Below are positions 6,179-31,063 of a stretch of DNA of 31,063 nucleotides, one piece after another; within the stretch, counting starts at the first letter, position 1; the number at the start of each line of letters is the position of its first letter. The translations under genes were made by a program, and so were the position numbers. The notes below the pieces were generated by a model. It saw only the letters and a list, made by a program, of their open reading frames with translations, was not told the origin of the DNA and did no database searches. This stretch comes from a virus. Lineage: Duplodnaviria > Caudoviricetes. Location: the IMG/VR virus record IMGVR_UViG_3300031999_000139, positions 1 through 31,063 of that record; one strand, written 5' to 3'.

Positions 6179-6190
6179 CCCATCTCCATA

Positions 6191-7541: not shown

Positions 7542-7548
7542 GGAAGCC

Positions 7549-11900: not shown

Positions 11901-14900
11901 ATCGTAACCGCGCTTCTGCGCCCAATCCTTGAACCCTTGTTTTTCGGTGTTGTAGTAATGCCCATCGGTCATGATGTAATGCACGTCACCCCAAGTGAGA
12001 GCATCCGGACTCGACAAATGCACTATGCCATGGTCTGGCGTACCGTCTTTCTTGGGTTCTGCAAACAGTAAATGCTGTTTGGCTTTCAAGAAATCCTCAT
12101 AAGAGAAATCCTTGCTGTACTCATCATGTCCCATCTTTCGAATACCCGATAGGTCATTGAGGTTCTTAGTGTAGAACGGCACTGAATCCTTATGCTCCCA
12201 CTTCTCTGGTATCGGTTTTTGGTCCCCAAGATATTGTGGGCGGTAGCGGTCCTTTTGGCGCTCCTGCATGTACCCTGCTAAGTCTCGGAAATCCGCTTTC
12301 GAGATAGGCGTATCCATGTCAATCGGTTTGCGCACGTTCAGATAGCACTCAAACACTTGAGGTGGCGTAACCGCTGGTTTGAAATCGCCTACCTTGTCCT
12401 TAGCCAATCGCGTCATGAGCGCTCGCAATCCCGCAGGCGAGCCATGGTGCATGTACTTCTCAGGTTGCCCCTTGGCATCCAAAATAGGACCGCTAGGACT
12501 TCTGTACTCCTGCAAAAACTTAGCGACGTTCACGCCTTGAGGTTCCATCGCTCGTTTGAGCGCAGCCGCCATGTATGATCGGTCTCTATCCGTATAGGCT
12601 TGATCCTCAGCTACAGCCCCATACCCCGGTGTACTCGCGATTACTTTCGTAGCCCATTTAGCCGGTAGGTGCGTTATCTCCTTGCCTGCGGCATCTGTAA
12701 TACCGTGCATCGAATTCCATTTGGCATCGTCACTTTGTTTTTCGGTATACTCTTTCGCGATCCCCGTATCCTCTGTGAAGTAGAACCCCTCACCGAAAAT
12801 GTTGTAGGTACTGACCTTGGCTGGGTCAAATGCCGTGAAGCCCCCTACGGCCGTACCATGATAAACCGGCATAGGTGCCATGTTGTGTTGCTCAGCCGGT
12901 TCACCCTTAGCGTTGACCACTTTGCTGGCATGCTGGGGGTCTTTCTCGTAATCCCCAAACCAACCGCGGAAGGACTTAGCCTTGATCCCCTGCTTTTGGT
13001 AGGCTTCCTTCGGATCGTCTTCCTCAGCCTCGGCATTGAGCCCAAAATCAAACGAGGTATCTAGGTCGCCTTCGATCTGTTCTGGATCAAAGGTTGCGTC
13101 CTCATCTGCTAGCTTAGCAATATGGTCCTGTAGCTTGGCTTCCTCATGCTCCCCACCTAGCTCAGCCGCGTAACTGGCATCTGCCTCAGCTTGCGCCCTC
13201 ACGTTGATCGCTATTTCCGCGTCTTCTGGTAAATGCAGCTTGATCCCGTGGTCTGTGAACCACTCTTGGAAGGTTTGGATCGCTTTCCTACTGTTGGTTC
13301 CATCCCAACGCTTATCCCTGGACACCAAACGGTCCCAAGCTTCTGCCGGCGACGATACTCGCGGATCTGGTGCGGCTTTACCTAACCGTCGCTTAGGCTC
13401 TACCAACCCCAGCGCTTGATTCAAATGGTCCAAGTCACCACCCGTATGCGCGGAAGGTTTCGGGCCCCTACCCGCTTTCCACGCTCGATAAGCGCTATCA
13501 GCTTTGTGGAATTGGTCTAGGAAATTCTCGTTGACCTCATGGGCTCCCTTGAGAGCACTGTAGGCTTGTTCCTTAGACCCAAAAAACGCACCCTTGGCTT
13601 TCCTTGGCCCCTTGACCTTGGGCAGTACCAGCACTGGCGTAGACGCTTTGTTCTCAGCATCGGCCGGCACATGGAAACGGTTATCCGGGTCTTTCAGCGC
13701 CGCTGCGCTCGCCTGTAGCGCTTTGTATTGGGTCGCCAATGACCTATGCAATGCCGCGGCTTCCCTGTGCATATCTGCCTGAGGTACGCCCATATCCGCG
13801 GCTTGCTGGTTTGCTTCGGCCGCTGCCAAATGGTTTTCAACGGAAGGTTCAACGCCAGTGAGTACCGTAAGATTGTTAGCGCGTTTGACTGCTAGGCGTT
13901 CAGGGGTTTTGATCTCGTAACGGTCCTCATGCTCTTTCAATGCGTTGCGTGCGTTCTCTCTCTGTACGTCGTTACCGTGGATCTTCGCCATAGCAAACGT
14001 ATGCTTGAGCCTGGTGTGCGCCTCGTCGATAGCCGCTTTGTGCTCCTCAGAAAACATCTCGTGCAAGTGCTCTTGCTTTACGCTCATCCGCTGGCCGGTC
14101 TCGTCATGTCTTACGGTCGCATAGCCATTCGGATGTACCTTTTCAACTTCGTAGTGCCCAACCTTCCCGTCATGCGTTATCTTGATCTTCTCACCTTCGG
14201 CTACAGGCTTGCCCATGTACTTGTTGGTGACTTTGTAGATGTAGTACCAACGCGGGCTTGCCTTGCCCGATGGGTAGCGCCGTAGGTACTTGTGCATAGC
14301 CCCTTTGATTAGGTCCACGGCACGATCAAACTCGAAAGCATCCGTAAGCCTACCGGACCAACTCATGCACAGGTCAAAGTCATCTGCGGAGATCACATGC
14401 AATTCATCGTGCATGCTTTTCGAGAAATCGGGTTCCCAAGGTTTCCTATGAGCTAACATTTCTGAAGGTGCTCCCTGATAAGAATTGTAGTGGGCTTCAC
14501 GCTTAAAGCGATCCCACAACAAATCCTCTGCGGCTTTCAATGCCTGTCTAGCAACCGTTTCTCTTGGGGTTTTCAGGTCTTTTGGAAAAGGCCAACTCTC
14601 TGGGATCTTCGCTTCTTTAACCTGTGTTGCTATTTTATCCGTTAGCCATTTCCGCATCACGGCTTTGACTTCGTACTCCGCTACACCAGACGAATGCTCG
14701 CCCACGTTCACCGCGTTATCCGTGCCCTTGAATCCCCACTTCAACCGTGGGTGTTGCACTTCCTTACGTGTATCCCCCGCGTAGCTCACATGATGATCAT
14801 GTCCAATAAAATACGAGGCTTCAGGAAACTTAGCTTCCACAACCAACTTTTCTTTGATCTGGGCTACCCAATCATCTAGTTTCTTGCGGGCTTCACCCAA

Positions 14901-15311
14901 CACTTTTTGCTTGGCTTCTTTCTCCGCTTGCTTAATCGAATCGTCGTCTAGGTTATGCGTGCCCCCTGCCATGCCTGGTCCACAACCGCTACCTACGCAT
15001 GCTTGCTTCCCTGTCTTTTGGTGTTCCATTTTGTAGACAATGGCATGCTCTTTACCACAACGATCACAAGTGGCACCCTCACCAGTCGCTAGGGCTATGC
15101 GCTTGCCCGTGTACCAGTCGATAGGTCGCAGATCCTTTACGCTATGGATCTTCCATTCCGGTTCTTTCGGAGCCTCATGCTTAGGTGTTTCATCCGCGTA
15201 CTCATAATCGTAGCCGCCACCGGCTTTCGCTTTACGGCTAAGGTACTTGTGGCCCGGTCGCTCGGCACCCCATGTGCTCTTTCTCAAATTCTCTGGAATG
15301 ACGTAACGCAT
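8958..15311 (-). CDS. Large polyvalent protein: Zn-binding module, ART-PolyVal-like ADP-ribosyltransferase and LPD1 (zincin-like) region
   Basis: 2117 aa. ART motifs FRGWFGD..SKVV, VYHGT, GFYFT, YLNVRKP, GYDG and NQIKAVGNEGTF (about 11770-12980). LPD1-type motifs VQFGHWV, AFSDLADILG, GARG, AAHYE, LAHEWAHAMD, EMFARAFE and YPQGEER (about 9040-9900). CDRC...CVGSGC near the N-terminus. Confidence 0.85.
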   Translation of the reverse strand: MRYVIPENLRKSTWGAERPGHKYLSRKAKAGGGYDYEYADETPKHEAPKEPEWKIHSVKDLRPIDWYTGKRIALATGEGATCDRCGKEHAIVYKMEHQKTGKQACVGSGCGPGMAGGTHNLDDDSIKQAEKEAKQKVLGEARKKLDDWVAQIKEKLVVEAKFPEASYFIGHDHHVSYAGDTRKEVQHPRLKWGFKGTDNAVNVGEHSSGVAEYEVKAVMRKWLTDKIATQVKEAKIPESWPFPKDLKTPRETVARQALKAAEDLLWDRFKREAHYNSYQGAPSEMLAHRKPWEPDFSKSMHDELHVISADDFDLCMSWSGRLTDAFEFDRAVDLIKGAMHKYLRRYPSGKASPRWYYIYKVTNKYMGKPVAEGEKIKITHDGKVGHYEVEKVHPNGYATVRHDETGQRMSVKQEHLHEMFSEEHKAAIDEAHTRLKHTFAMAKIHGNDVQRENARNALKEHEDRYEIKTPERLAVKRANNLTVLTGVEPSVENHLAAAEANQQAADMGVPQADMHREAAALHRSLATQYKALQASAAALKDPDNRFHVPADAENKASTPVLVLPKVKGPRKAKGAFFGSKEQAYSALKGAHEVNENFLDQFHKADSAYRAWKAGRGPKPSAHTGGDLDHLNQALGLVEPKRRLGKAAPDPRVSSPAEAWDRLVSRDKRWDGTNSRKAIQTFQEWFTDHGIKLHLPEDAEIAINVRAQAEADASYAAELGGEHEEAKLQDHIAKLADEDATFDPEQIEGDLDTSFDFGLNAEAEEDDPKEAYQKQGIKAKSFRGWFGDYEKDPQHASKVVNAKGEPAEQHNMAPMPVYHGTAVGGFTAFDPAKVSTYNIFGEGFYFTEDTGIAKEYTEKQSDDAKWNSMHGITDAAGKEITHLPAKWATKVIASTPGYGAVAEDQAYTDRDRSYMAAALKRAMEPQGVNVAKFLQEYRSPSGPILDAKGQPEKYMHHGSPAGLRALMTRLAKDKVGDFKPAVTPPQVFECYLNVRKPIDMDTPISKADFRDLAGYMQERQKDRYRPQYLGDQKPIPEKWEHKDSVPFYTKNLNDLSGIRKMGHDEYSKDFSYEDFLKAKQHLLFAEPKKDGTPDHGIVHLSSPDALTWGDVHYIMTDGHYYNTEKQGFKDWAQKRGYDGIAHTGGWNVGTHAHKVWIAWAPNQIKAVGNEGTFNATTNDIYKAMTPNIFVIIPSKVRYLDLLEKAGGPYVGPRGGLWADPQHTQHWEPNQPSTLIPKEELEDKVTELTHLSHEDLASIKKQQEEYLAKLDASGEAVPVAAMRLARIIDRAIEKKGPKLVATVPEKTATPEKFDYDEHEAKMDAAKKESDAGYEQYKQERNIRDKAISEKVLEHVKNGGEITLTTHLRSTTYRHPENLRLTANGKLQLAEGRNRWISLLPEQMDRLAKQIGFEPETKPAVTEKPEPPKMVAKVTEKPTQRDLAFAAHPKPVQEMTVETKPATKAKTGRKELAVDVGTHVTGTRWEKAQALTVTDLEHMNPEDQARAVTKKNLMPTWEPQELLDRGMEPEVVLLRNAMEKCIIEKPANEGKARRYYLEGMDFFAKSIDQCKTKQDIMDFIEDWHHLIQGQRRIKTLSADEVGQAYDDYLVSQGKKLTMPYAERKKALAEIEEISDSKYGKGWKYDSPEWKAVDEKVRALKDAFEARGGDEYRFMPLNQVIARALKVDEHLDVSYGNDGAITVFARDPNLESKVNENNAYVRMAAGFGKTFVGIVGHSSPKHHGPKVFRDALGATERWAQDKLSQEDRVKALHERLGVKRTASKPREAPFKWERDVPGEIDRKGGKPVGDITPQELAKDFGLKNVQFGHWVTDKDAYSHLKGAYGAFSDLADILGVDVKRVSLNGRLSIGIGARGIGKFAAHYESGKAIINITKIAGGGCLAHEWAHAMDNLLSVSHDPTSTQAGRMVSNGATEGISPRVKDAYADVMAAIRSKNPEAQKKLTEANALIKQLNAERRRATPAENKQITEAHRAMAENHHSEFYQDASSFSKAEDNYWTRGHEMFARAFESFIEDTLTEEGRKSSYLVSGTQSKYPTGRTWTQKDGTKRECQIYPQGEERKRINAAMRRLIESISEEKSLEKALRFLDSQPLQRFVIPVDMS

Positions 15312-15314
15312 TGC

Positions 15315-17096
15315 CTATCCCATCTTGATCGTGTTTTTCACAGCCGCGGTATTTTTCAGCCCCTCTTTGACGAGTTGCTTTTTCTTGGCTTCAATTGCAT
15401 CTTCATCCGCCAAAGTAGTCATAGCCGGCCAACCATCCGGCAAAACAATAGGCTTAGCCAACGTACCTTCAGGCAACGGCTCTTGGAATTCGTAATCTTC
15501 CTTGTTCTTACGCCCCTGAATATGCCGTTGCGCTAAGTTGTCCAACATCTCACGGGGTTGAATGTCCCAACCCTGCTCTTTCATCGTTGGCGGTTTGCCT
15601 CGCTTGGGTACGTTGAACAGGTAGTTGGCGCCTACGCCTGGACCTGGTGCCCGATGCCCTGCCATGGTCTCTACCATCTCAGCCGATACGTTACCCGTAG
15701 AGCTTAGCCCTGGTGCCGGCGTATCGCTCTTTTGCAAGGGGATCACAAACCGTGTTGCTGACTTCCCTTTTTTGAGCACGTTGCCGTCATGCTTGTTGCT
15801 CAAGTACGCCCATCGTTTGAAGTGGTCCAACGACATAGGGTCTACAGACAAATCGAACCCTGGCCGGTCATAGTGAAAACGATAAGCGGCTAGAGCCGCT
15901 TGCTCGTGAGGAAATCCAAGCATGATTTTGCTTTCATCGTAGATGCCTGTAGCCGGGTTCTGTTGCTGTACTACGTAAACCATCTGCGCTCTGGGATCTG
16001 GACCCAAGAATACGTCAAGCGCATCTCCGTCTATGCCGTCTGTATCTTCCACGTACCCATACGCGAAAAGAAGCGTGGTATCGCCCTCACTACCATCCGG
16101 AGCTTTCCAATGCCGGGTAGTGCCAGGCGCATTCTCGATAGCAATGGGCAATCCTTGGAAATCGACGTGACCTAAGCGCACGCTCTTAACCAAGTCCATT
16201 TCCTCAGTCATCGCTAATTCGAGATCCCCTTTGGCGCTATAGTCCACACCAAACTCTCCACCCGGTACTAGCTCACCTTGTTCATCGAAACCCCAACCAT
16301 CGGGAATACGAACAAGAGCACACTGGCAATGACAATGAGTTGACGGAATTACTGGCAACCAATCACGAGCCTTACGCCCATGATTTGTTCCATTACGCTC
16401 AAGCTGTGAAAGCTTGAAAATGCGGGGTTGGCCATCAGGCCCATTGTATAAGCGGGAGCAATGAGGGCAGCAGTCAGGCATGGATCTCTTAGCTACCCGA
16501 ACATCCCCACCAAACTTTTTCGCGTAATGGTCGGCTGTACCCCGCTGCATTGCGTTCTGAGTCTCTGTAATCGCGATCCTATCCCAATCCCTAGCCCAGT
16601 CTTTCGTTTCCCATCCCAACTTGCTTTTCAATTGCCGTGCTGATTCCCGCTTGGCTATGGATTCGGCTGTAGCCGTCCTAATCTTGTCCCGCATCTGCGC
16701 TTGTAGCTGGGTGTCTACGTTCAGCGCTGATTGCCCGGTAGCGAGGTCTACCCGCCTACCCAACCCTACCGCGTATTGCGCGGCCGTATGCTGTGCCACC
16801 TGTACCGCTCTCTGTTCTATGGGGCTCAAGGGTACGGGGTTTCTCCGCATGTAGAGTTTCAATTCTTCGTAACCCATTTTCGCTACCCGCGGATCGTCCA
16901 ACGCTGCTAATAGCTGGCCGTACACGTAAGCATCTTCGACACTGTTGATTTTGACGTTGATTAGACCCTTGGAACGTAGACGTTCCAAGGTCTCAGGGTC
17001 TACAGCGCTCGGATGTATGACGTTAGCTACAAACGCGCTGTGATGGTCTGCGATGATTTGCCGGATCTCATGGAGCTGTGCATCGGTAAGCAACAT
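15315..17096 (-). CDS. MuF-like head morphogenesis (minor head) protein fused to an inorganic pyrophosphatase-like domain
   Basis: MuF-type motifs WDRIAITE, CCPHC and HCHCQC, then GLPIAIEN, YGYVEDTDGIDGDALDVFLG and YDESKIMLGF typical of the InPase domain of polyvalent proteins. Confidence 0.85.
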   Translation of the reverse strand: MLLTDAQLHEIRQIIADHHSAFVANVIHPSAVDPETLERLRSKGLINVKINSVEDAYVYGQLLAALDDPRVAKMGYEELKLYMRRNPVPLSPIEQRAVQVAQHTAAQYAVGLGRRVDLATGQSALNVDTQLQAQMRDKIRTATAESIAKRESARQLKSKLGWETKDWARDWDRIAITETQNAMQRGTADHYAKKFGGDVRVAKRSMPDCCPHCSRLYNGPDGQPRIFKLSQLERNGTNHGRKARDWLPVIPSTHCHCQCALVRIPDGWGFDEQGELVPGGEFGVDYSAKGDLELAMTEEMDLVKSVRLGHVDFQGLPIAIENAPGTTRHWKAPDGSEGDTTLLFAYGYVEDTDGIDGDALDVFLGPDPRAQMVYVVQQQNPATGIYDESKIMLGFPHEQAALAAYRFHYDRPGFDLSVDPMSLDHFKRWAYLSNKHDGNVLKKGKSATRFVIPLQKSDTPAPGLSSTGNVSAEMVETMAGHRAPGPGVGANYLFNVPKRGKPPTMKEQGWDIQPREMLDNLAQRHIQGRKNKEDYEFQEPLPEGTLAKPIVLPDGWPAMTTLADEDAIEAKKKQLVKEGLKNTAAVKNTIKMG

Positions 17097-17115
17097 GGCC
17101 GCATCTTACACGGAT

Positions 17116-20100
17116 TTAACGTGAACGCACCATGCCCAACAGTTCATTCACGCTCTTACCGTACAGCACACCATTGCGCTCAAAGTCCCTAGCCTCATAG
17201 CCACGCTTGATCAACGCTTCCTTCATCCTTCGATAGGCAATGCTCTCACGGTCAATGATGTCCTGCACAGGGTCTACGGGTAACGCTTTGATCAAGGGTA
17301 GCTGACCTGGCAAAGGCTTGTTTTCAGGTGCGGGCTTCTGAGGTACGGGTTTAGGCGGTACGGCGAACATCTCTCGCTGTTTCGGCTTACCGGCGACCAC
17401 CTTTTGTGGATTGAATAGCCCACGTTGCCCAGGCAAAGGCGCTTCCTCTGGGTTCTGTTTCACTTTGACCGGCGTACGGATTTTGTGCTTGGGCTTCTCT
17501 GTACTTGTAGGTGTAAGGGTCAATCTATCCTTGGGCTTTGTTCCTGCGACCGTATTCCAAAAGGCTGTTTCCTCATCATGTTGTTTTTTGATTTTGGCCA
17601 ACGCTACATCTAGGCCAATGCCCTTAGGAATTGTGGCTTTCGCTTCAGCTTCCAATTTCTTGGTAGCCATGCCCAAATGGTGCTTCGCGAAGTCGTGTTT
17701 CTTGTCCCGCATCCACTCTAGTGATCTCGCTTGATAATGCTCCCAATGTCTTTGCCCTTCGGAAAAGTCGCGTCTAACGAATTCTTGCCCATGCTTCTGA
17801 TACAAGAAACGCAAGCGTGCCATATCGTCAGAAGCGCCTGAATCCCTATTCTTAGGATCGCCGGCATTCTTAGCCGCCTTACCCACGTCAAACATCACCA
17901 CGTTTCCGTTGGCATCTAGGCCGGCTTGAGGCTCATCGTTCAGCGCATACCCCTTTTTGTGCATCCCAATTAGGGAATCCTGCACAGCGTCTAATTGCTC
18001 ACGGGTAAATTTCTCTGGGATCTCTACCCAAGGCTTGATCTGGAATCCCTTATCCCCGTGTTTTACAAATTCGGATCTCTGTATTCCAGGCACACCGGCA
18101 TCGGCTAGCTCGTTACCGATAGCCACTTGCTTTTGAAGCATCGTAGCCGCTTCCTCTGGACTACGGTGCCCCGGATTCTCTGGCTGGTAGGGAACGGTCG
18201 TGGACACCTTCACAACCTTATCCCCGTGCTTAAAGGCCATGCCGTCATCGCCTTTGCCTAAAAACTTGGCCTTTCCAGAAGTTACCGCGTCAATGTCTGG
18301 GTTGCCGCTCGGTGGGAGATCAACCCTACCAGCCAAATCATTCTGGAAATGTTTGAGGCTCGCTTTGGGCATCCAAGGTCCGTAATCAGAACCCTCATGC
18401 CGGCCAACCTGTACCTTATCCCCTTCAGTTTTGAGCACTCTGTATGTGCTCTTATCCTCTTCCCTTCCAGAAATGGCCGGATGCACCGTTACGGCTAGGG
18501 TATCCCCTACTTTGGGTTCTCCCTGTACGCCAGCACCCGTAGGCTGTTTCAATCCCTCGATAACCCGATTGACTGCCGCGTTTACATCGTAATGTGCTGG
18601 GCCTTGGCGTTCCAGGGCTTGGCGTATTGTGACTTCTGCCGTTTTCGGATCTTCCGCTAACAGTTCTCTGTACTCGTTAGCGTACTCGTGCATTTGATCC
18701 AAAGCCCTAGCTACCCGCTGTTCCGTTGCTCGGTCATTCAGAATCGGAGTCAGTTCATAGCTGGCAATCTCGTCTGGCGTTAAAGGACGGTCATAAACAG
18801 CTTGACCATGCCGAAAGGCTTCGTGGGGTTCGTGGGTTGCCCCTTTGGGCACATTCGCGTGACTCACCGGGCGTAAATGCGCTCCATAGCGAAAGACACC
18901 GTTATGCGAGGCATCCCCAGATTCTTCCCAAGAAATCGTATGTGCGGCATCCGCCCACTTTCCACCCCGCGGACCAATGAAAGGGCCACCTTGCGCTTTG
19001 GAAAGGCTATCCAAAGATTTCTCTACGCCTTGTTGGGGAGCTGCGCTTGCTGCGCCGCTGCTTTCTTCGCTTCCCGCTTCGCTCGTGCCTCGTGGTACAT
19101 CTTCACCCAAGTCTCTACCAACATCGAATACGGAATAGCCGGCTTCCCTGAGTCTTTCAATCTCTCTGTGACCGTCTTCTGCTTCCCAGGTGACTGGTGT
19201 TTGGACATCGCCTTGCTCCTCTTTTGCTTTGGGAAGGTTGACCCTATCTGCTTCATCCAACGTCCTTCCTACCCCATGCGCAAAATGTAATCCGTTCTGA
19301 ATAACCACTTTACCATTAGGCATATCTTTAATCAAGATGGTCTTGTCTGTCAAGTCTTTCAGATCGGAAAACATTTCTTGGAGCTTTTCAGGATCTTCAT
19401 GGTGGGCCATGAATTCATCGCCATGAGGATGAGCGGCATGTACGGAATGACCATCCACCTTGGTCAACAATTCGCTGAATTTCCGCAAGATCGAATCTGT
19501 ATCCTTTTTGCCAAACGCATCGTTGAATGCTTTGACGCCACGCAAATCAGCCGAGGCTACGTAATGACCGGGGTTCAATGCCAACGATTTCTTGAACCCG
19601 TCATCGCTCAAAAGCCCGCTGCTTTTCTCTTGGTGGATTGTCTGGAAAGCTTCTTCGGGATCAAGCTTGGCGAATTGCGCGTGATGCTCAGTAGTTAATT
19701 CTACACCTTTGCCTGGGCCCATTGACTGCATCCGTGCGGCTATGGGTTGCATAGCTTCATGGGCTCGTGCCTTATCGGTACCCAAAGCCGCGGGGTGTTG
19801 CATACGGTGTCCCAAACGTCCCGCTTCTACCTCAGCATCCTTGTGCGCTTTATGCGCGTTGCCTAGTTTTTCCAGAGTAGCTGCGGTATCTGGACCGTGC
19901 TTTACGGCTGTAGCCGTCACTTTGACCCTACCACTAGGGTCAATCGCTAGGCTCATACGCTCAGCGATTTGATCTGCATGCGCTTGGTCCCGTACGTCGC
20001 CTTCGATATCGCCAGCCCTCTTTATCCCATCTGGAATATGCTGGCTCAGCTCATTGCCCATAAGCCTGAGAGCGCCATCCGGGGCCTCGTGGCCAAATTT

Positions 20101-21492
20101 ATCGTTGAACGCTTTGAACCCTTCCATGCTGAAACGTGCGGTCATCGGACGTTGGGGATCTCGCTGGCGTAGCTCAGCTCCCCGCTCGTTCAGCAAACCT
20201 GTATTACGGTCCTTGAAATAGGCGTTTCGCTGTTCATCAGGGGATAACTGCCCGTGTTGCTCACGTAGCTTACCCAATGACGCGGGTTCTGAGGCTACCT
20301 CTGGGTTTTGCTCTATTGGTTCCGATTTCGTTTCCGGAATTACCTTTGGGATTCGCACATCTTTCCAGGTCTGACCCTCTTTCAGATCCCCTTTCATTTT
20401 TGCGCTAAACGCTAATTCCTTACGCTCACTTTCCGCTTGTTTGGCATCCTGCCCTAGTTTGTCGATTGCTGTATTTAGGTAACCCATAGCGGTAGGAAGA
20501 TCGATCCCGCCCTCGTTATATGCATAAGTAATATCCAAATTCAGATCGAAGAAATCTTCTTTGGGATCTAAATTCGCGATACGTTCTTTGAGCCTGTTTA
20601 CAAGTACCTCCCCTTTAGGATTCACAAACCCAAGGTCAACCATCTTCGGTGGGCCCCCACCCTCCGGATGTATGAAACTGTCTTCCTTGAACTCTGGAGA
20701 CCCCCAACCTTTCTTTTCCAATTCCTTAGCGATAGTATCATATGCCTCACGCAAACCCTGAGAACCCCACGTACCCGATCTACCCTGTATGAATTCTCTG
20801 GTAAGCACATCATGTTGCGGATCGTATTTGTGTACCTTGGCTACGTACTTTTCTGCCGGTGTCCCCATAAGCGCTTGGTTAGCTTCTGCCTCATTGCGGA
20901 GCTTTTGCATGTCACCCGGCCGGCGATTACGGCTAACCTTATGAGCCCTGCCCTGTTCATCCGCAAACACCATACCTTCCCCACCTGAACCCACGTAACG
21001 CAAACTCGGAGCATGGGCTCCAGCCGCAGCCGCACGCATAGATCCCTGTACCACTTGAGGTTGAACAGCCGCATGTGCGTCTTGTTGGATCTGTTCATGG
21101 GGCACCGCGTCTTCCCAATGGATCGTGTGCTCTGGGTCTGCCCACTTGCCCCCTCTGGGTCCGATGTAAGGACCACCCGCTTTATTCAAATCGTCTGGCG
21201 TTACGGACTTCGTAATCGGTTGCCCTACGCTCGTATTCTCTACCGCTTCGGCCAACACCTTGGCGATGTCCAGGTGGATGCGCTCTAGGGTCTTTTCGTA
21301 CTCGTCTTTCGTGATCTTGTGGATGTCCCGCAGCGCTTTGTACTTCAACGCTGGTTCTTTCTCGGGCAACGCTTTTTCCAATGTTTCGGCTAGTTCTGGG
21401 CTGACTGGGTACAGCTCGTGGGCCAGAGCCTTGATTAGCTCCTCGCCCTTTTCGCTCAGTTCTTGCGGAGTAGCTTCTAGCCGTACACGCAT
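17116..21492 (-). CDS. Large polyvalent protein: kinase-like domain, tandem GGDEF-like domains, DarA_C-like domain, second kinase-like domain
   Basis: 1458 aa. VGSGGEGMVF..HKVS..VDLG; DRNTGLLNERG..FKAFNDKFGH and ADLRGVKAFNDAFG..HGDEF; YGAHLRP..VPKG..HGQAVYDRPLTPDEIASYELTP; FLGKGDDGMAF..VVKVS..FDVG. Confidence 0.8.
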   Translation of the reverse strand: MRVRLEATPQELSEKGEELIKALAHELYPVSPELAETLEKALPEKEPALKYKALRDIHKITKDEYEKTLERIHLDIAKVLAEAVENTSVGQPITKSVTPDDLNKAGGPYIGPRGGKWADPEHTIHWEDAVPHEQIQQDAHAAVQPQVVQGSMRAAAAGAHAPSLRYVGSGGEGMVFADEQGRAHKVSRNRRPGDMQKLRNEAEANQALMGTPAEKYVAKVHKYDPQHDVLTREFIQGRSGTWGSQGLREAYDTIAKELEKKGWGSPEFKEDSFIHPEGGGPPKMVDLGFVNPKGEVLVNRLKERIANLDPKEDFFDLNLDITYAYNEGGIDLPTAMGYLNTAIDKLGQDAKQAESERKELAFSAKMKGDLKEGQTWKDVRIPKVIPETKSEPIEQNPEVASEPASLGKLREQHGQLSPDEQRNAYFKDRNTGLLNERGAELRQRDPQRPMTARFSMEGFKAFNDKFGHEAPDGALRLMGNELSQHIPDGIKRAGDIEGDVRDQAHADQIAERMSLAIDPSGRVKVTATAVKHGPDTAATLEKLGNAHKAHKDAEVEAGRLGHRMQHPAALGTDKARAHEAMQPIAARMQSMGPGKGVELTTEHHAQFAKLDPEEAFQTIHQEKSSGLLSDDGFKKSLALNPGHYVASADLRGVKAFNDAFGKKDTDSILRKFSELLTKVDGHSVHAAHPHGDEFMAHHEDPEKLQEMFSDLKDLTDKTILIKDMPNGKVVIQNGLHFAHGVGRTLDEADRVNLPKAKEEQGDVQTPVTWEAEDGHREIERLREAGYSVFDVGRDLGEDVPRGTSEAGSEESSGAASAAPQQGVEKSLDSLSKAQGGPFIGPRGGKWADAAHTISWEESGDASHNGVFRYGAHLRPVSHANVPKGATHEPHEAFRHGQAVYDRPLTPDEIASYELTPILNDRATEQRVARALDQMHEYANEYRELLAEDPKTAEVTIRQALERQGPAHYDVNAAVNRVIEGLKQPTGAGVQGEPKVGDTLAVTVHPAISGREEDKSTYRVLKTEGDKVQVGRHEGSDYGPWMPKASLKHFQNDLAGRVDLPPSGNPDIDAVTSGKAKFLGKGDDGMAFKHGDKVVKVSTTVPYQPENPGHRSPEEAATMLQKQVAIGNELADAGVPGIQRSEFVKHGDKGFQIKPWVEIPEKFTREQLDAVQDSLIGMHKKGYALNDEPQAGLDANGNVVMFDVGKAAKNAGDPKNRDSGASDDMARLRFLYQKHGQEFVRRDFSEGQRHWEHYQARSLEWMRDKKHDFAKHHLGMATKKLEAEAKATIPKGIGLDVALAKIKKQHDEETAFWNTVAGTKPKDRLTLTPTSTEKPKHKIRTPVKVKQNPEEAPLPGQRGLFNPQKVVAGKPKQREMFAVPPKPVPQKPAPENKPLPGQLPLIKALPVDPVQDIIDRESIAYRRMKEALIKRGYEARDFERNGVLYGKSVNELLGMVRSR

Positions 21493-21502
21493 TGGGAAAC
21501 CC

Positions 21503-21889
21503 CTACGCTATGGGATCTCCCCAGCAAACGTACACGCCGCTAATATCTGTTTCGCCTTCGTTCTTTACAGAGACTTCTGTAATCTCACACTCCAGAAACA
21601 GCTTAGCCTTACCCGTATCCGATGCCTTGCGCATTTGAATCGCATCCGTAGATCCGTTCAAATACACCTTCGCATCCCCGCTCAGTTCCAGGTACAACCC
21701 CCTAGCTATCGTCACGTCACCAAAGGAAAGCGATTCCTGACTGGTAGCCGAAACCAGCAATACAGAGTTGACCTGACTAGCAAAGGTATCGGTTTGGATC
21801 GTGGCCGCGGTTTGGTCATCCTTGAACAACGCACGCTTCATGTTCGTATCGAGCGCAAGCTGTACTTGGACCGTGTGTTTCAAGCGCAT
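21503..21889 (-). CDS. Hypothetical beta-rich protein downstream of portal
   Basis: 128-aa ATG ORF with AGGAG RBS, filling the gap between portal and the 1458-aa gene. Confidence 0.7.
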   Translation of the reverse strand: MRLKHTVQVQLALDTNMKRALFKDDQTAATIQTDTFASQVNSVLLVSATSQESLSFGDVTIARGLYLELSGDAKVYLNGSTDAIQMRKASDTGKAKLFLECEITEVSVKNEGETDISGVYVCWGDPIA

Positions 21890-21899
21890 ATTCTAGCTC

Positions 21900-23681
21900 C
21901 TACAAACTGAAATCGACCTTTACGCTACGCTTTTGCACCGCTCGCTGCAAACTCTTCCGTAGCTGCAAACTCTTCCGTAGCTGTAGGCTCTTGGCGGCTA
22001 TCTCTTCTTCTTCCGATTGGTCATCGTCAGCATCTTGATCGTCGGCTTCCTGTTGGGCCAACAATTGCTGGAAATCGACTTGATCCCCTTGACCGTCAGC
22101 ACCAGGCGCAGCGTCAGCACCAGGAGCGTTAGGATCTGGCTGGCCCATCCCCGGCATACCCTGGCCACCACCTTGAGCCGCTTGGTCCTTAGCAGACGAG
22201 AATTGCAACCATGTGGAATCCAAAATCACTTCGCCTTTGCCCTCTGGCAATGGCGGTAGGTCATCTTCGGCCCTAATCTCATCCACTGTGCGGATCGTCT
22301 TGACGAGTTTGGTATTGAGGTCCGCTATCTCATCCCTGGTTTTCGCATCCAACCCTACAAACTTGAACTCAAAGTTTTCGTTCAAAGGCCAAATGATATG
22401 GTGGTTGAGTTGGGATTCTAGGAATCGAAGCAACGGACGTAGCCCACGCTCTTTTGACTCAGTGATTTTTTCCTTGTTGTTGGCTTCCTGCAACCCGCCA
22501 CGTTGACCCGTGTTACCGTATTTGAAATTGATCTCTACGGGGTCCATTGTGAAAATTGCGCAACTCAGTTTCAACAGGAAGTCCATGTACGCTGAAAATT
22601 CCATGTCGCGGTTAGAGTTTTGCAAACTAATCCATTGCAAATCTTCCGCATTAGTAATGGGAGTCCTCCACGAATTTTCTACCCCACTCACCATCTGATA
22701 CCAATGCCTGCGGAAAGCTTTTAACTGTCTCTCTGGGATAGCTCCCTTGAAATTCAAGATACCTTTCTGACTTGAACCTTGCGAAAAGGTTTTGACGTTG
22801 TATTCCCACGAAAACAGCAAAGCCGTAACTACGTTCATCAGCATTTCAAGTTCTGAAACGCCGTAACCAAACAACCGAATATCCGTGGATGGGTTGCGTA
22901 CACCAAAAATCATTTCCTCTTGGTTGTACTCACTTATGATCATCCCATCGTATACCTGCACATAACGGATAGCTTGTGGGTTCGCTTCGTTCAAATAGGT
23001 ACTAGCTGTATCAGCCAACCGAATAGTGCTGGCGTCTACTGCATAGAACTCCGCAGGTTCACCACGCCTATTAGGTACTACTTCTGCGCACGCCTGGTCG
23101 AACCGCATTGAATCGTACATGAACTTACGGACAAACTTCTCAAAGGTATCCCTACCCCGTGGGTTATCAGTCACACCTGTACGCTGTATGAAAACCTCGC
23201 TCTGTTGAATCCATTGCCTCTCGGCCTCAGTAGGTTGCTTACGAGAATCCCTAACCTTGATCCTGTAACCCATCTCATAGCGATCACGGCTAGGTTGGCA
23301 AAATGCAGAGATTTGCTGAATACGTGTTTGGATAATGGCTTGGATCGCTGGCGTTTTGGCAACGATGCTCTTGAGCGTACCGTAACTAACCGCACTAGGT
23401 TTTTCCTTGTAACCAAGTTGCTCGATAATGGCAAAAGGATCCCAAAACAAGGTCTTAGGATCTGCAACAGCTTCCTCATCCGGTACAGGATTCGACATAG
23501 CAGTATCAGGATGCGTACCACCTGGGGCATCGTCCTGGTCATCGTCACCCGTTACCGTAGGATCTGGATACCCGGCTTTCATCATTGCCGCTGCATCATC
23601 TTCCGCGAAATCCGTAAGGGCCTCGCCCGTAGCGCCGGCTAGGTTACGGGCTACGTTGCGTAGTCGCTCTTGCCAACCCAT
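21900..23681 (-). CDS. Portal protein
   Basis: 593 aa. FYAVDASTIR, FGVRNP..YGVSELE, KGILNF, DMEF, SKERGLRPLL and TVDEIRAEDDLPPL are characteristic of HK97-family and Herelleviridae-type portals; downstream of terminase. Confidence 0.92.
   Translation of the reverse strand: MGWQERLRNVARNLAGATGEALTDFAEDDAAAMMKAGYPDPTVTGDDDQDDAPGGTHPDTAMSNPVPDEEAVADPKTLFWDPFAIIEQLGYKEKPSAVSYGTLKSIVAKTPAIQAIIQTRIQQISAFCQPSRDRYEMGYRIKVRDSRKQPTEAERQWIQQSEVFIQRTGVTDNPRGRDTFEKFVRKFMYDSMRFDQACAEVVPNRRGEPAEFYAVDASTIRLADTASTYLNEANPQAIRYVQVYDGMIISEYNQEEMIFGVRNPSTDIRLFGYGVSELEMLMNVVTALLFSWEYNVKTFSQGSSQKGILNFKGAIPERQLKAFRRHWYQMVSGVENSWRTPITNAEDLQWISLQNSNRDMEFSAYMDFLLKLSCAIFTMDPVEINFKYGNTGQRGGLQEANNKEKITESKERGLRPLLRFLESQLNHHIIWPLNENFEFKFVGLDAKTRDEIADLNTKLVKTIRTVDEIRAEDDLPPLPEGKGEVILDSTWLQFSSAKDQAAQGGGQGMPGMGQPDPNAPGADAAPGADGQGDQVDFQQLLAQQEADDQDADDDQSEEEEIAAKSLQLRKSLQLRKSLQRAVQKRSVKVDFSL
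21945..21992. repeat. 18-bp tandem repeat in the portal C-terminus
   Basis: ctgcaaactcttccgtag at 21945-21962 and 21963-21980 plus a degenerate partial third copy; encodes KSLQLR-KSLQLR-KSLQ. Confidence 0.9.
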
Positions 23682-23685
23682 GGGT

Positions 23686-26600
23686 TTACCTCTTGCGAAA
23701 TACTACCGGGCTCGGGCCTTCAATCCGCACGTCTTCCTCTACGGGTCGCGGTTTCAGGATAGGGTCACACGCGCTCTTTTCGAGCCTAATGGCATCCCCA
23801 CCACCCATGTACGCGCTGCGTGGGAGCATGCGGTTGACTACCGTACCTTCCCCACAACCTGGACAAGCCGTCAACATCGCAGAGTACCTACACCCGCAAC
23901 CCTCTGACTTGCAAAGGACGTTTTGCCTAAGCACTGAACCTGGGAGCGCCAACGTAGGACTTGCCCCATGGTAGAAATCGGACTTCAACAGCGCTTCGGC
24001 CTCGGCATCCGTATTCCCGTGAATGCTGGCCATCGAAAGAGGATGCACAAAACCAACATGCACGTCATTGCTCTTTTGGAGCTTCGCAATGTGCTGCGCC
24101 GTTTCCTTCGCGACCATGGCGCGTTGTGACGCTGGCGTGAGGCTCTTGTAGCCCTCTGGGATCTCATCTTCCAAAGCCGCGGTGCCTGGGGTCATCTGCT
24201 TAGCCGGGTCACGGTCATCACCCAAGATTTCCTGTTCACCCTGGTTTACGCCTGTAAGCTGCCCCTTAGCGTCCTGGCCTTCACCCGCAGCCGACCCACC
24301 GTTACCCGTGGGAGTAGGTGTCTCAGTCAGATCCCCACCGTTGGCAGATCCGCCCAACGTGGTTTCAACAGGCTTATCAATTTCATCCCAGTCGTTTTGA
24401 TCTGGCATACCGTCTGCCTTGTTCAGATAGTCACCCAACTCACCTAGTCCTGATTTCCGCATAGCACATTTCTCCATTCGCTTGGCTTTGCCAGCCATGG
24501 CGTAAATACGTTCTTCCAAATCATCTACCTTCATGCCCAGCTTACCAGCTAGCGCATGTACTTGGGTATCGTCGGGATGCGGATCTCGTTGCAACAAAGC
24601 ATTGATCTCCGCAGTTACAGACTTCTCCATCTTCGCCAGCTTCGCGTAGTAGTGGCCATCTTCGGTCAAGTGGTCCATGGCTATCTCTTGCGCCACTTTC
24701 TTGCTCTTGGTGTGCTCCATTTCGACCTTGATACCTTGCGCCAGCGCTTTGGGGTCAAAGTCACTGGGGCTCTTGCCTGACGCCAAACCACCTGGGATCT
24801 GCTCAACACTCTTGCGCAAGTAGGCACCTAGCTCCGAGATCCCGTCGCTCTTTTTGAGGGGATTGCCCTGTGCGTCGTACCCCATACCCGCCATGAACTT
24901 TTCAGCACCCTTTTGGCTACTGAAAACCTTAACCGTTGGTCCATTTACAGCAACGAAATTATCCCCCTGTTTACGGATACCCCGTTCCTGAGATTCGCTA
25001 CCCGAGGTGCTAGTCTTGATCTTCTGCACCCCGATAGTGGTTTCCGGTTTCTTGGAGAATAGATCGCCTTGAACTGGCTTGGCGGGTTTTTCTTTTTCGG
25101 GTTCAGGCTTCTTATAGGTATTTACCCGATAATGCTGACCCGCAGTCGGATACCTGAAAATGGGTTGTCCTTCAGGATGCTTGCTCCAATCTTGCTGCTC
25201 TACCAATTCCTGTAACGCCTTCACCTTAGCTGTCTGGCGTTTGATAGCGTCATGATCTGGCTCATGCCCAGCCGTTGTCATTTCGTGGTGTTTCGCGTCC
25301 ATTTTCATGGACTCATCAAACGTCTTATGTGCTTCCCCCCAAAGGTCATCCAATTTCTCAGGATAAGGGATACCCGCTCTTTCAGACCAGTCCTTTTTCT
25401 CTGGTGAAGCCTTCGGATGCGTAGGGGCATCCTCTTTCACCGGGGTCTGGAATCCGGAAATCCCCTCCATTTTTTGACGTGGTGTAACAACGTTCCCCAT
25501 ATGCAAACGCACCGCTTGTGCCGCCATATAGCTCAAAGGCTTGTGCTCTGGCTCAGCACCTTGCTCGCCGCCATCTTTCCATTTTGCGTAGGCTTGTGCG
25601 TAAGCTTTCTTGGCTGGGTTCCTGATAGCTCGGATGTACTTCTGCACGTCCGGATGACTGAGGTACTTACCACCTTCAGGCGCTTTCTTTTCGCCGGTTG
25701 GTTTCAAACCCTTTTCTTGATTCGCGATAGCCGCTTCTAACCCATGAATGGTGTCAATGATCAAAGGGATTGAATACTTAGGCAAAGTAGGATCGTGTCG
25801 ATGCCCATGTTGCAAAGCAGCCAAATGCTGCTTGTATCTTGCTAACGCTGCTTTGTTCTCAGACAAAGCCTTAGCCCTTTCAGCGTCTGTAGGACCGCCG
25901 CCTTGTCCCGCTTCCCTATGCATCCTTTCCTTTGCGGTCTCTTGCTTCTCCCCAAACTTCGGCTTTTGCGCAATACCCTTATCGTTGATCTTGTAACCCA
26001 TCTCTGTAAGCGCTTGGGTTACTTTCTCATGCGATTGCCCGCTTTGCTCTGTGAGGTGCGCGACGTTTACGGGTTTCGTTATATCGTCGGGTAGGAAGTC
26101 GCGGACCTCCCATTTAGGAGATTCTTGCTTACCCGCCTGCCGATCAAACGTCACTTGCCCATGCGGATGTTCTGGATGGGGTTCAATCTCGTAACCCAAA
26201 TCCGCGATAGCCGCCTTAGTGCGGTCTACGTTCATTCCCGTATCAGATGCGAGCTGCCCCACCTTTTGCGTATGTACTCCACCAGCCCTCAGCGTTTTCA
26301 GGTGTCCTACAAGTTTATGGGTATCCGGATGTACTTGTTTGCCTGCCGGTTTCTTAGCCCCCGGCTCCCTTTGCGCGTCCATCCCCATACGGATAGCTTC
26401 AGGCTCAGTATGCGCAGAAAGGGTTTTGAATTTCCCATCCTCTTGCGCCACGTTAACCATGTAGAGATCTGGGTAAAGCTTGTTGATAGTTAGGTGCTCA
26501 TTGACGTTCGCTACTTCACCCGTGATCCCTTTTCTGTACTTCAAACTTTCGCCTTGTTTGGGTTTCTTACCCCTAGAAACTCCCGTCGCTTCCTCAGGCA

Positions 26601-27933
26601 ATTCCACAGGAGTATGAATCGTCCCCCCTCGCTGTTTCATACGTTCAGCTACAGTAGCCACGCTATGCGTTCCCAAAGATCCACTACCCGCCGCACCCTC
26701 TTTCTCCGGATCTGGTTCTGTAGCGTGCCATGCTCCGTTTTCCTGTCGTGTGTAATGGACTTCCCCACCTTGCGAATGCGGAGTTACTACTTTGCTACCC
26801 GCGGGCAATTTGTCCAAATGTTCCGCTTTGAAATCGTGACCTTGTGCGTAAACGTACTGATATCTTCCTGGGATACCCGTTCTCCGAATGTACTTATGCC
26901 CCGTGCGTTCCCCACCCGTACCCGCTTTCTCCAAGTAATCTCCCAAAGCGTCCAACCCGCTCATGCTTTTCTGGAATTGTGGCGGTACTGGTTTCTTCGG
27001 AGGCACGCCCGGTTGACCCGCAGGAGGCATCGCTTGTGCCGGCATCCCCGGTTTCGCCAATTGCGGTTCGTGAGGTGGCATCATGCCCTGTGCTGGCTTA
27101 CCCGGTTGCATAGGTGGCTTGCCCACCATACCCCTAGCCGTAGGTGCCCCTTCATTCGGCGGTAGGTTCTCAGGTGCCTGGTTAGGCGCAGACGCTGATA
27201 CCGGCGCACCCTGACCCATCGGAGGCTTAACCCCTGGCATACCTGGCTTACCCATAGCTCCCTGCATCTGTGCCGCATTAGGAGCCCCTTGAAGAGGCAT
27301 ACCGGGTTGCATAGGCATCGGAGGCTTATTGTCTCCCAATTGCGCTCCTAGGGCCTGTTCTGGGCCAACCATGGGGGGTTTAGGGGGCATCCCCGGCTGC
27401 ATACCCGGTTGCGCTCCAGGTTGTGGTTGCCCACCCTTCATTTCGACTTGTTTGGACTTCCAATGCTCATGCGCGTTCTCACCCTGACCCGCTGCCTCAG
27501 CATGCGCTTGGTGACGTGTAGCTGCGCTTTGCTGGGCCTCTGGGCCCAGCTTTGGGTTTTGTGCATGCTGCGCAAAGTATTGGCTGATTTCCTGATGTCC
27601 TTGGGCAGTCAAGTACCCACTGGCGTCAATCATGCCGGCGTCAAGCAATTCCTTTTGCGTACCAGGATGCAAGGACCGAAAGCCCTTTTCACCCAAGTGG
27701 CTAATCTTGGACAACGCGGCATGGAGGTTCGCTTTGTTCTCATGGATCGAAGGCGGCGGTAGCTTTGTGATCTGGCCCCCACCCTTTGCTTTCGCATCCT
27801 CAGCCCCTGGACCCGACAATTCAGCGCCGGCATCGTCACTGGGCCCGTCGTCTTCATCGTCGCTGCCTTTCATAGGCAACGAGGGGTTCGCTTTGCTCAA
27901 GTATTCTTCAACCAAATCGTCTGTGCTTTTCAT
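23686..27933 (-). CDS. Large modular head-associated protein with a P/G/Q/M-rich region, a DUF5661-like domain and a C-terminal Cys cluster
   Basis: Start moved to ATG at 27933 (MKSTDDL; GGAG RBS; just after the upstream stop), giving 1415 aa. GIKVEMEHT..IAMDHLTE..YYAKL is DUF5661-like; CKSEGCGC..CPGC lies near the C-terminus. Confidence 0.8.
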   Translation of the reverse strand: MKSTDDLVEEYLSKANPSLPMKGSDDEDDGPSDDAGAELSGPGAEDAKAKGGGQITKLPPPSIHENKANLHAALSKISHLGEKGFRSLHPGTQKELLDAGMIDASGYLTAQGHQEISQYFAQHAQNPKLGPEAQQSAATRHQAHAEAAGQGENAHEHWKSKQVEMKGGQPQPGAQPGMQPGMPPKPPMVGPEQALGAQLGDNKPPMPMQPGMPLQGAPNAAQMQGAMGKPGMPGVKPPMGQGAPVSASAPNQAPENLPPNEGAPTARGMVGKPPMQPGKPAQGMMPPHEPQLAKPGMPAQAMPPAGQPGVPPKKPVPPQFQKSMSGLDALGDYLEKAGTGGERTGHKYIRRTGIPGRYQYVYAQGHDFKAEHLDKLPAGSKVVTPHSQGGEVHYTRQENGAWHATEPDPEKEGAAGSGSLGTHSVATVAERMKQRGGTIHTPVELPEEATGVSRGKKPKQGESLKYRKGITGEVANVNEHLTINKLYPDLYMVNVAQEDGKFKTLSAHTEPEAIRMGMDAQREPGAKKPAGKQVHPDTHKLVGHLKTLRAGGVHTQKVGQLASDTGMNVDRTKAAIADLGYEIEPHPEHPHGQVTFDRQAGKQESPKWEVRDFLPDDITKPVNVAHLTEQSGQSHEKVTQALTEMGYKINDKGIAQKPKFGEKQETAKERMHREAGQGGGPTDAERAKALSENKAALARYKQHLAALQHGHRHDPTLPKYSIPLIIDTIHGLEAAIANQEKGLKPTGEKKAPEGGKYLSHPDVQKYIRAIRNPAKKAYAQAYAKWKDGGEQGAEPEHKPLSYMAAQAVRLHMGNVVTPRQKMEGISGFQTPVKEDAPTHPKASPEKKDWSERAGIPYPEKLDDLWGEAHKTFDESMKMDAKHHEMTTAGHEPDHDAIKRQTAKVKALQELVEQQDWSKHPEGQPIFRYPTAGQHYRVNTYKKPEPEKEKPAKPVQGDLFSKKPETTIGVQKIKTSTSGSESQERGIRKQGDNFVAVNGPTVKVFSSQKGAEKFMAGMGYDAQGNPLKKSDGISELGAYLRKSVEQIPGGLASGKSPSDFDPKALAQGIKVEMEHTKSKKVAQEIAMDHLTEDGHYYAKLAKMEKSVTAEINALLQRDPHPDDTQVHALAGKLGMKVDDLEERIYAMAGKAKRMEKCAMRKSGLGELGDYLNKADGMPDQNDWDEIDKPVETTLGGSANGGDLTETPTPTGNGGSAAGEGQDAKGQLTGVNQGEQEILGDDRDPAKQMTPGTAALEDEIPEGYKSLTPASQRAMVAKETAQHIAKLQKSNDVHVGFVHPLSMASIHGNTDAEAEALLKSDFYHGASPTLALPGSVLRQNVLCKSEGCGCRYSAMLTACPGCGEGTVVNRMLPRSAYMGGGDAIRLEKSACDPILKPRPVEEDVRIEGPSPVVFRKR

Positions 27934-27935
27934 CG

Positions 27936-28913
27936 TCAAATACTCCGGAGCTGCAAAAGCCCTTTTTTGAACAGCATCGAACCACCTTGAGCGCACGCCT
28001 TGTTGAGCGCTTGGGCTACCAACGGTTGGCCGTAAGTCTTCACCACATCGGACAACTTGTCTAGTGACAGACCCTCTGGCCCTGCATTGCCCAAACGATG
28101 CGTCACTACCCGGATAACCCTGGCTAGACGCTCCTCAGGATCACCCTGCTCAAACTTATCGACGATAGCGCCTGGTTTTTCCGATTTACTCACTGTGTTT
28201 ATTTTTCCAGTAGGCGATACCCATTGTTCTGCAAAATGCTTTTGACGGGCTTGCTCTTCCGAAGATTCCGGAGATACGCCCTGTTGACTTTCGTAAATGG
28301 GTTTACCACCCATTGCATGCCCCACTACCTTGCCACCCCTACTTCCCTCACCTTCACCCTTGCGCAATTCATCCACGGTAACTACCTGCACCATGCTCTT
28401 GCGCATGTCTCTGTAATAGCTCAGCGCACGAGAGAACAACGCACGCCGTAACTCTGGGGCCATACGGTCTGACAGCATCTTAGTTACCAGTTCATGCCTG
28501 ACCGTCAATTCGTTACGTGCGCTAAGCGCTTTGCCCAACAACCCTACCCATTCATTTTGCTTTGCACGATCCAAGCCCAGACCGTCAACTACGGATGCGG
28601 GACTCATGTACCTACCCGTGGGTTCGAACATCTGCGCCAACGTGGGCTCGCTCGGCATTTGTTTGGTCTGGCGTAACAGGTCAATGTTTTCTCGCGACGG
28701 TACCTGACCCGGCCATTTCGTGAGTATGAATTGCGGGCTCAGCGCACAGGTAGTGCTCTTGCTCATTTTTTCTGGCGCACTATCGCCGCTCATTTTTTGG
28801 TAGATGCCCATGATGTACGCCCAGTCCTTAGCTCGACCTTGCTTAGCTGCCAGCGCTTTCGCTTTATTCCAATGCCCCTCATCTTTCGCGTTTTTAACTA
28901 CCCCGACTGGCAT
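27936..28913 (-). CDS. Hypothetical modular head-associated protein
   Basis: 325 aa with AGGAG RBS; small helical N-terminal module (WNKAKALAAKQG..WAYIMGIYQKM); several hydrophobic-x-K-[S/A/G] motifs; GEGSRGGKVVGH..GGKPIY segment. Confidence 0.75.
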   Translation of the reverse strand: MPVGVVKNAKDEGHWNKAKALAAKQGRAKDWAYIMGIYQKMSGDSAPEKMSKSTTCALSPQFILTKWPGQVPSRENIDLLRQTKQMPSEPTLAQMFEPTGRYMSPASVVDGLGLDRAKQNEWVGLLGKALSARNELTVRHELVTKMLSDRMAPELRRALFSRALSYYRDMRKSMVQVVTVDELRKGEGEGSRGGKVVGHAMGGKPIYESQQGVSPESSEEQARQKHFAEQWVSPTGKINTVSKSEKPGAIVDKFEQGDPEERLARVIRVVTHRLGNAGPEGLSLDKLSDVVKTYGQPLVAQALNKACAQGGSMLFKKGLLQLRSI

Positions 28914-28992: not shown

Positions 28993-29232
28993 CTACCAGT
29001 AATTTCGGATTTTGGAAGCGCTAGGAGCGCCCCCAAGCAACCGTCTGTTCATTTCTTGTTCATCCATATTCGCATCGTCTACCAAGTTGCCCTCGATTAT
29101 CGACGAATCCCCTAACTCTGGTTCTCCCATTATCTCTGTATCCACCAAATCGCCTTTTGCTTTTGGTGGTTCAGGTACTATCCCCAAAGCCTCATTGATC
29201 CGTTGCTCGATAGTTGTTTCTGGCGCTTCAGG
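28993..29232 (-). other. Open -1 frame, probably the displaced C-terminal tail of the terminase
   Basis: The frame is open from 29253 to the stop at 28993 and reads PEAPETTIEQRINEALGIVPEPP...GGAPSASKIRNYW; it has only a TTG or late ATG start of its own. Confidence 0.55.
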
Positions 29233-30857: not shown

Positions 30858-31063
30858 AGGAGGTACCCTGCCACGATCTGACAGTATTATCCAGAGACAA
30901 GTTAGGAATGAAACTGTTCCCAACCCGCTTGATAGTCAATGTGGGTTGGCGTCATGCCGCTGCGCTTGAACGGAGGGGGCCTACCAGCTCGCCTAACAGG
31001 TAACGGCGTAGTCTGTTGACCGCAATGACAAGTACGTTTCCCCGATGGGTAAGTATGGACTAC

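Follow-up and report, generated by a model that had tools for sequence, protein, structure and literature searches.

What purpose is served by a short motif that recurs inside the giant proteins encoded among a phage's head genes? The question is raised by a 31,063-base phage fragment (Caudoviricetes; IMG/VR record IMGVR_UViG_3300031999_000139; 29% complete), called the window below, whose minus strand carries a SPO1-like head module with terminase, portal, protease, scaffold and capsid protein genes. Three giant genes, g1436, g1458 and g2117, are interspersed among these head genes, and the motif, here named the HKY tag, occurs in g1436 and g2117 behind predicted protease sites. The HKY tag is a real, uncatalogued module. 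With somewhat less than even confidence, we read it as an N-terminal handle that is retained on cargo enzymes after they have been cut free and that probably binds the packaged genome.

The sequence-only reading had located three tag stretches, and all three are present on the minus strand, each behind an LxK↓[SAG] site (the arrow marks the predicted cut; window features cited hereafter lie on the minus strand unless marked +). Two fall in g2117: copy A (15195..15278, residues 12-39) follows a predicted LRK↓S site at 15276-15287 and heads a predicted piece of 287 residues, and copy B (14235..14303, residues 337-359) follows LIK↓G at 14301-14312. Copy C, in g1436 (26848..26925, residues 358-383), follows LEK↓A at 26923-26934 and heads a predicted piece of 692 residues. 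Tag and site together span residues 9-39 and 334-359 of g2117 and 355-383 of g1436, with the H at 9, 3 and 9 residues from the respective sites. The motif reads HKY[ILV]xR, a loop of 4-10 residues and then [YW]xYxY, about 20 residues in all. From its earlier description the HKY[LI]xR core stands, as does the longer G-x-ER-x-GHKY common to two of the window copies; the second strand, given as Y-x-Y, is refined to [YW]-x-Y-x-Y, and two of the copies said to head unrelated modules share one protein. In 3,000 shuffles of the 8,403-residue head-module proteome, 0.004 occurrences of HKY[LIV]xR are expected against the three seen, and a profile search of the 31-kb record gave exactly three places, with E values of 1e-14 to 5e-9 (all three being included in the profile).

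An alignment of eight copies has invariant H, K, Y and R and two further invariant Y, and among 304 copies parsed from 332 profile hits the conservation is 94% for H, 95% for K, 99% for Y and 96% for R, with alternating aromatic positions. The tag has a mean net charge of +2.8 and 4.7 aromatic residues per 20. The basic and aromatic β-hairpin proposed from the letters is also what AlphaFold predicts: two strands with a basic/aromatic pattern and no conserved helix (mean pLDDT 68, core 87). A second model, of copy B and its neighbour, again has a hairpin, followed by a separate SH3/Tudor-like barrel (14052..14201; pLDDT 84) whose best fold matches reach Z 5.0-5.6 with a root-mean-square deviation of 1.8-4.0 over 42-64 residues.

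Relatives were collected with two DNA patterns lacking upstream positions, which found at least 133 and at least 136 stretches in viral contigs and at least 252 distinct hits. Removal of 11 hits to an unrelated family and then of 30 near-duplicates took the 252 matches listed to 241 and to 211 non-redundant copies, 120 of which, with the three from the window, make up the 123-member search profile. Run against 1.84 billion cluster representatives with a limit of E 0.001, this profile matches 1,599. The family dropped as unrelated reads HKYL[ND]RCGW (11 hits, 11.8-21.8 bits). Known families offer no significant match to the tag in Pfam or PHROG, in a PDB sequence search (best E 1.8) or in a protein atlas search (best 0.82, a lead only). 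Pfam LPD models recovered it with LPD23 only, in one of the 123 members at E 0.16, and it is not a catalogued LPD domain. A fold search with the 38-residue tag model returned nothing at Z of at least 2, nor at E 0.001 among viral models, a two-strand model being too small for this to weigh. No description of the motif was found in the literature searched, most subscription journals lying outside the search.

The phages that carry the tag, and their probable hosts, belong to very different groups, and the surroundings of the tag are those of head genes: a recognised head gene lies nearby in 88 of 113 tag loci, against none of eight HKYL[ND]RCGW look-alike loci. Five larger records hold from 3 to 13 copies, confined to one block each, and the tag blocks in the stretches fetched are found near the portal gene, on that side of the protease and capsid genes which faces the terminase (the capsid gene of G001 was not located). 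G001 itself, a complete 104-kb phage, has its 13 copies between 40937 and 65990, six of them inside one 1,432-residue frame. Among cultured phages, a tblastn search with window copy C gave no match and searches with three relatives gave only rows at E 2-9, from which Thermus phage Lalka8 was then confirmed by the profile (28 bits); its single copy opens gene 4 (PQ109075 7672-8955), in the neighbourhood of portal and DarB-like genes. For Acutalibacter phage Fontainebleau, another tblastn row, the profile did not confirm a tag. In a scan of cellular genome contigs, three loci gave no row and 12 distinct weak rows (at most 23 bits, mostly Flavobacterium/Bacteroidales look-alikes, one with an upstream site) were set aside. 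Flavobacterium proteins of 136-168 residues (L295, L297, L298, L300 and L303) carry an acidic look-alike, HKYEYRTG..Y.Y.Y, with no upstream site.

The evidence that the sites ahead of the tag would be cut comes from the capsid and scaffold proteins. The SPO1-like major capsid protein of the window (2636..4087) is 36-37% identical to SPO1-group capsid proteins and has LNK↓A at 3986-3997. The capsid chain of PDB entry 9ROW counts 439 residues against 463 in 5LII, is thus 24 shorter and begins right after VVK, and in the deposited sequence this start aligns with the LNK↓A of the window; the K and A of the site are at least 90% conserved in 25 relatives. LxK[SAG] is also enriched in scaffolds, with 14 sites against 1.8 expected in that of the window (4141..5097) and 11 against 1.3 in that of SPO1. 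A SPO1-type capsid protein, its N-terminal LxK↓[AS] and an LxK-rich scaffold characterise the window as a SPO1/Herelleviridae-like head module with LxK maturation. The literature searched held no statement of a cleavage rule for SPO1-like proteases, and it is from the 9ROW deposited sequence and the motif enrichment that LxK[SAG] is judged a real protease motif. The putative cutter is the prohead (head maturation) protease encoded at 5114..6229 (phrog_1028, E 3e-26).

In front of the tag, LxK[SAG] occurs within 12 residues in 133 of the 211 listed copies, compared with 8.0% of random positions and 8.5% after shuffling, and the spacing peaks at 3 residues (58/133) and at 8-9 residues (39/133). 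A site stands within 35 residues of 282 of 312 tags in the best 150 proteins, against 15%, and before all 12 distinct strong copies in cellular genome contigs (read by eye); the profile by which both sets were chosen or scored has eight upstream columns, which biases them towards the site. By class, the 211-copy set comprises 134 LxK, 23 x-[LIVM]-K, 8 LxH and 2 N-type sites, 12 plausible natural starts and 15 copies with a site 13-35 residues off. A separate lineage carries protease-capsid fusions (phrog_3270), six of which contain 48 LxH against 8.3 expected and 6 LxK against 13.5 (some of the LxH lying inside the protease domain). The 11 tags in loci of that lineage comprise five within 12 residues after LxH, three after x-[LIVM]-K, three with no site and none after LxK[SAG]. 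In a third group, x-[LIVM]-K directly abuts HKY, and one locus has FYN. The upstream K-[SAG] of the sequence-only reading is therefore kept in most relatives and yet is not fixed, being replaced by LxH in another lineage and absent at natural N-termini. Since the type of site varies with the phage and some tags stand at natural starts, the constant is the N-terminal position and not the lysine. As a side observation, DUF7211 proteins follow LxH sites in L152, L137, L035 and L168, phages whose protease-capsid fusion is rich in LxH, which suggests, from sequence, a histidine-specific prohead protease.

The domains of tagged cargo include ART, RelA/SpoT, zeta kinase, anti-CBASS Acb1, SNF2, CCA enzyme and RNA ligase, and 34 of 57 tagged proteins scanned have no Pfam family at E 1e-4. 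HKY also heads basic proteins that are very short or of low complexity and in which no enzyme is evident. At L136:5965-7437, L183:1813-3291 and L138:2371-4257, it stands at or near the N-terminus of CCA-type tRNA nucleotidyltransferases and of an RNA ligase, which by sequence are candidate virion-carried tRNA repair enzymes. A scan of 86 tagged proteins took those from well-flanked loci that did not exceed 1,000 residues; in nine of them HKY heads an extension that lies behind the portal (6) or the protease (3) and is fused to it. As fusion to portal or protease should already ensure packaging, the tag would be superfluous for packaging in those nine.

Ahead of each of the seven tags of the window, of whatever type, lies a short peptide (7-38 residues) that runs between two sites or from the start. 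The 14-residue peptide between two LxK sites before copy C (26926..26967) is a candidate removable packaging propeptide; g1436 has three near-identical peptides of 12-14 residues flanked by paired LxK sites (residues 344-357, 1050-1062 and 1182-1193), of which one only precedes HKY. An F/Y-V-I-P motif stands ahead of 12 of 312 tags (against 0.3%) and a D-A-L-type helix ahead of 28 of 312 (against 1.0%). These peptides would be better candidates for removable packaging signals, and most tags have neither. The pattern [FY]V[I]+P appears in short terminal or double-cut peptides at residues 3, 1188 and 2110 of g2117 and at residue 450 of the protein encoded at 15315-17096.

The sequence-only reading had also supposed the HKY tag to be interchangeable with another, GPRGG, and such exchanges are seen in relatives at four positions and in both directions, two of them with separately significant identical downstream cargo. 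Behind the N-terminal domain of g1458, the window (21115..21189), L191 and P0065 have GPRGG, and HKY stands there in P0142, L001, L002, L202, L233 and P0007, P0142 being 86% identical in this place. The GPRGG tag before the DarA_C module (18925..19005) is matched by HKY or HLY before the homologous module in P0124 and L166. The reverse direction is found before the first g2117 module, with HKY in the window and P0102 and GPKGG in L191, P0065 and P0083. At residue 1204 of g2117, where GPRGG (11637..11711) accompanies an LEK↓A site, HKY or HLY replaces it in P0010 and P0113, a swap read from a multiple alignment and one long alignment, BLAST of the downstream piece having matched P0102 only. The idea that the two tags specify a different timing or destination receives no support, and their free swapping before the same cargo argues for equivalence. 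A third type, with the core GSRGG, follows LRK↓G in g325 (28332..28346). This type reads GEGSRGG..[VI]IGHT..GKPIY after LxK sites, with three copies in L001 (3399-4925). Yet another tag type may be represented in the Lalka8 DarB-like protein (L281:371-6634) by a basic stretch resembling a hairpin, LVPEKRVVERGG...QTYWV, about 100 residues from its start.

Several known systems resemble the tag. The T4 capsid targeting sequence (CTS) of IPI/IPII/IPIII and Alt stands before the cut and is removed by the protease, as described in the available text of PMC9026906 and PMC7411985. Like HKY, it is a short peptide, adjoining a site for the prohead protease, that is common to internal head proteins which are otherwise unrelated and which enter the host. 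In contrast to it, HKY lies after the predicted cut (3/3 window copies, 133/211 listed relatives), so that it would stay on the protein, and it is found repeatedly inside polyproteins and in head lineages that are unrelated. HKY is consequently not simply a removable packaging propeptide of the T4 type, the tag being C-terminal of the predicted site and also present behind portal and protease; by analogy, the short peptides ahead of it may be the closer CTS counterpart. In phage P1, DarB has an N-terminal signal of about 30 residues on a large anti-defence head protein (PMC9024508, as far as its available text goes); a DarA_C domain is present in g1458 of the window, and the tagged gene of Lalka8 lies near a DarB-like gene. 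The same available text describes no consensus among Dar N-termini, whereas HKY is conserved, repeated and swappable.

The giant proteins themselves recall the polyvalent proteins of Iyer et al. 2017 (PMC5512222), which, in the text available, share ART-PolyVal, LPD1, InPase, DarA_C, PBECR2, MuF fusions and late head operons. As large multidomain proteins with conflict domains encoded between the terminase and the protease/capsid genes, g2117, g1458 and g593 belong with them. The string HKY is absent from the main text of PMC5512222, which in its available part discusses release by embedded peptidases and not a shared leader after prohead-protease sites. DUF7211 (PF23847) has a 25-residue Gly/basic/aromatic motif directly after LxH, in small head-region proteins of HKY-bearing genomes, and from sequence looks like a sister tag of HKY; its model matches neighbouring proteins but none of the 123 HKY copies. 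β-Sheet DNA-binding domains (the λ integrase arm-binding domain, MBD) likewise present basic and aromatic β strands and give a few weak Pfam matches, but consist of a three-stranded sheet and a helix, where the HKY model has two strands and no conserved helix.

Our tentative explanation is that the prohead protease would cut the giant head-cargo proteins apart at LxK-type sites, leaving the HKY hairpin at the new N-terminus of the freed enzyme module. There the hairpin would bind the packaged genome and keep the freed enzymes in the head, and the DNA would carry the tagged enzymes into the cell at ejection. Packaging itself would be brought about either by a fused portal, protease or MuF or by short peptides removed ahead of the tag. 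We infer the packaging of these proteins, their cleavage after LxK and the retention of the tag on the mature piece, and the weakest steps of the explanation are DNA as the partner and the contribution of the tag to co-ejection. The capsid proteins compared across tag-bearing lineages, and the one portal pair compared, have no BLAST similarity, and the tag is near-identical, which hints at a partner common to all, such as DNA. Together with the basic and aromatic character of the tag and a cargo that acts in the cytoplasm, these dissimilar heads favour a genome-binding handle. The main rival, which we hold to be unlikely, is an anchor on a head protein, at the inner face of the capsid, the portal or the scaffold core, for packaging and for retention until ejection. 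It accommodates the 12 listed copies at natural N-termini without propeptide, the clustering of tags between terminase and capsid genes in the five larger records, the proximity of head genes and the 30 residues at the N-terminus of P1 DarB, which suffice for capsid targeting according to the available text of PMC9024508. An anchor agrees poorly with a near-identical tag in phages whose capsid and portal proteins have no detectable pairwise similarity (their folds may be shared); it would be redundant for packaging behind portal or protease, and a shell-bound tag must release for delivery.

An exit-channel leader, or a role after entry in which the tag might dock cargo on some host machine or shield the new N-terminus, is improbable in our estimate: the strict N-terminal position and the cytoplasmic action of the cargo would suit it, but the tag spans very different phage and probable host groups and also heads short or low-complexity basic proteins without evident enzyme. 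Quite improbable is a hairpin that binds an exosite of the protease and makes the adjoining cut efficient, as the two spacing peaks might suggest, for scaffold and capsid sites carry no tag, tags at natural starts have no site, spacers run from 0 to more than 12 residues, and the sites are of K, H and N types. A passive relic of recombination or duplication at module borders, with no function in the protein, is very improbable; the tag does mark joints where modules shuffle, but conservation at the amino-acid level with an alternating pattern, over 1,599 clusters at less than 50% identity and with loop lengths of 6-12 residues, largely refutes it.

Several observations also weigh against the genome-binding handle. 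Arm-DNA-bind_1 matches 3 of the 123 profile members (E 0.03) and MBD 2 of them (E 0.024), weak matches that may be due to chance. Where copies stand at natural starts and no propeptide precedes them, packaging may be signalled by the tag itself, and a protein partner would then be the better fit. In T4, cargo fused only to a removable targeting peptide is packaged and delivered with no retained leader, according to the available text of PMC9026906, and a handle is therefore not generally needed. If every LxK were cut, the ART-PolyVal and LPD1 domains of g2117 would fall in untagged pieces, and many predicted pieces are untagged. Moreover, 17 of the 211 listed copies have no nearby site or start, no head gene was recognised in the DNA fetched for 25 of the 113 tag loci, and the SPO1 head region has LxK sites but no HKY tag. 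A broader version of the genome-binding handle, which we regard as doubtful, has many tailed phages with unrelated heads sharing a set of interchangeable N-terminal handles (HKY, GPRGG, GSRGG and DUF7211) that, once exposed by the protease, would clamp enzymes on the genome and let the DNA drag them in.

The remaining features of the window complete its head module. The terminase large subunit is encoded at 29178..30923 and the portal protein at 21900..23681. Among the giant genes, g2117 (8958..15311) encodes a polyvalent cargo protein with ART-PolyVal and LPD1 domains, two HKY tags and one GPRGG tag, g1458 (17116..21492) a cargo protein with GGDEF-like and DarA_C domains and two GPRGG tags, and g1436 (23686..27996) a cargo protein with DUF5661 and 12 LxK[SAG] sites. 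DUF5661 begins shortly after an LRK↓S site (g1436 residues 1085-1125, in the window region 24600-24800) and is also found in several tagged relatives. At 15315..17096 lies a minor-head-type protein, in which Pfam matches the InPase domain only and whose N-terminal half, judged from gene position, is read as MuF-like. A pair of genes for a ParB-like and a PAPS-reductase/DUF3440 protein (6408-8796, +), with a lower G+C content of 0.45-0.47 against about 0.52, is inserted between g2117 and the protease gene; in G002 the pair is missing there, the protease gene following the g2117 orthologue.

Beyond T4 and a few giant phages, the way in which internal head proteins are retained and leave with the genome is, to our knowledge, poorly understood. 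The HKY tag extends the theme of capsid-cargo signals, and a conserved motif that would remain on the mature piece offers a direct way into the question of how internal proteins are retained and ejected. Whatever its partner, the tag with its cut site marks likely cuts in polyvalent proteins and unannotated modules that are likely virion cargo. The cultured phage Lalka8, on the laboratory host Thermus thermophilus HB8, makes the tag testable. If handles that clamp enzymes on the genome are indeed shared, the tag would serve as a barcode in the sequence by which injected counter-defence proteins are recognised in more than 1,000 uncharacterised clusters, and would offer protein delivery a portable signal.

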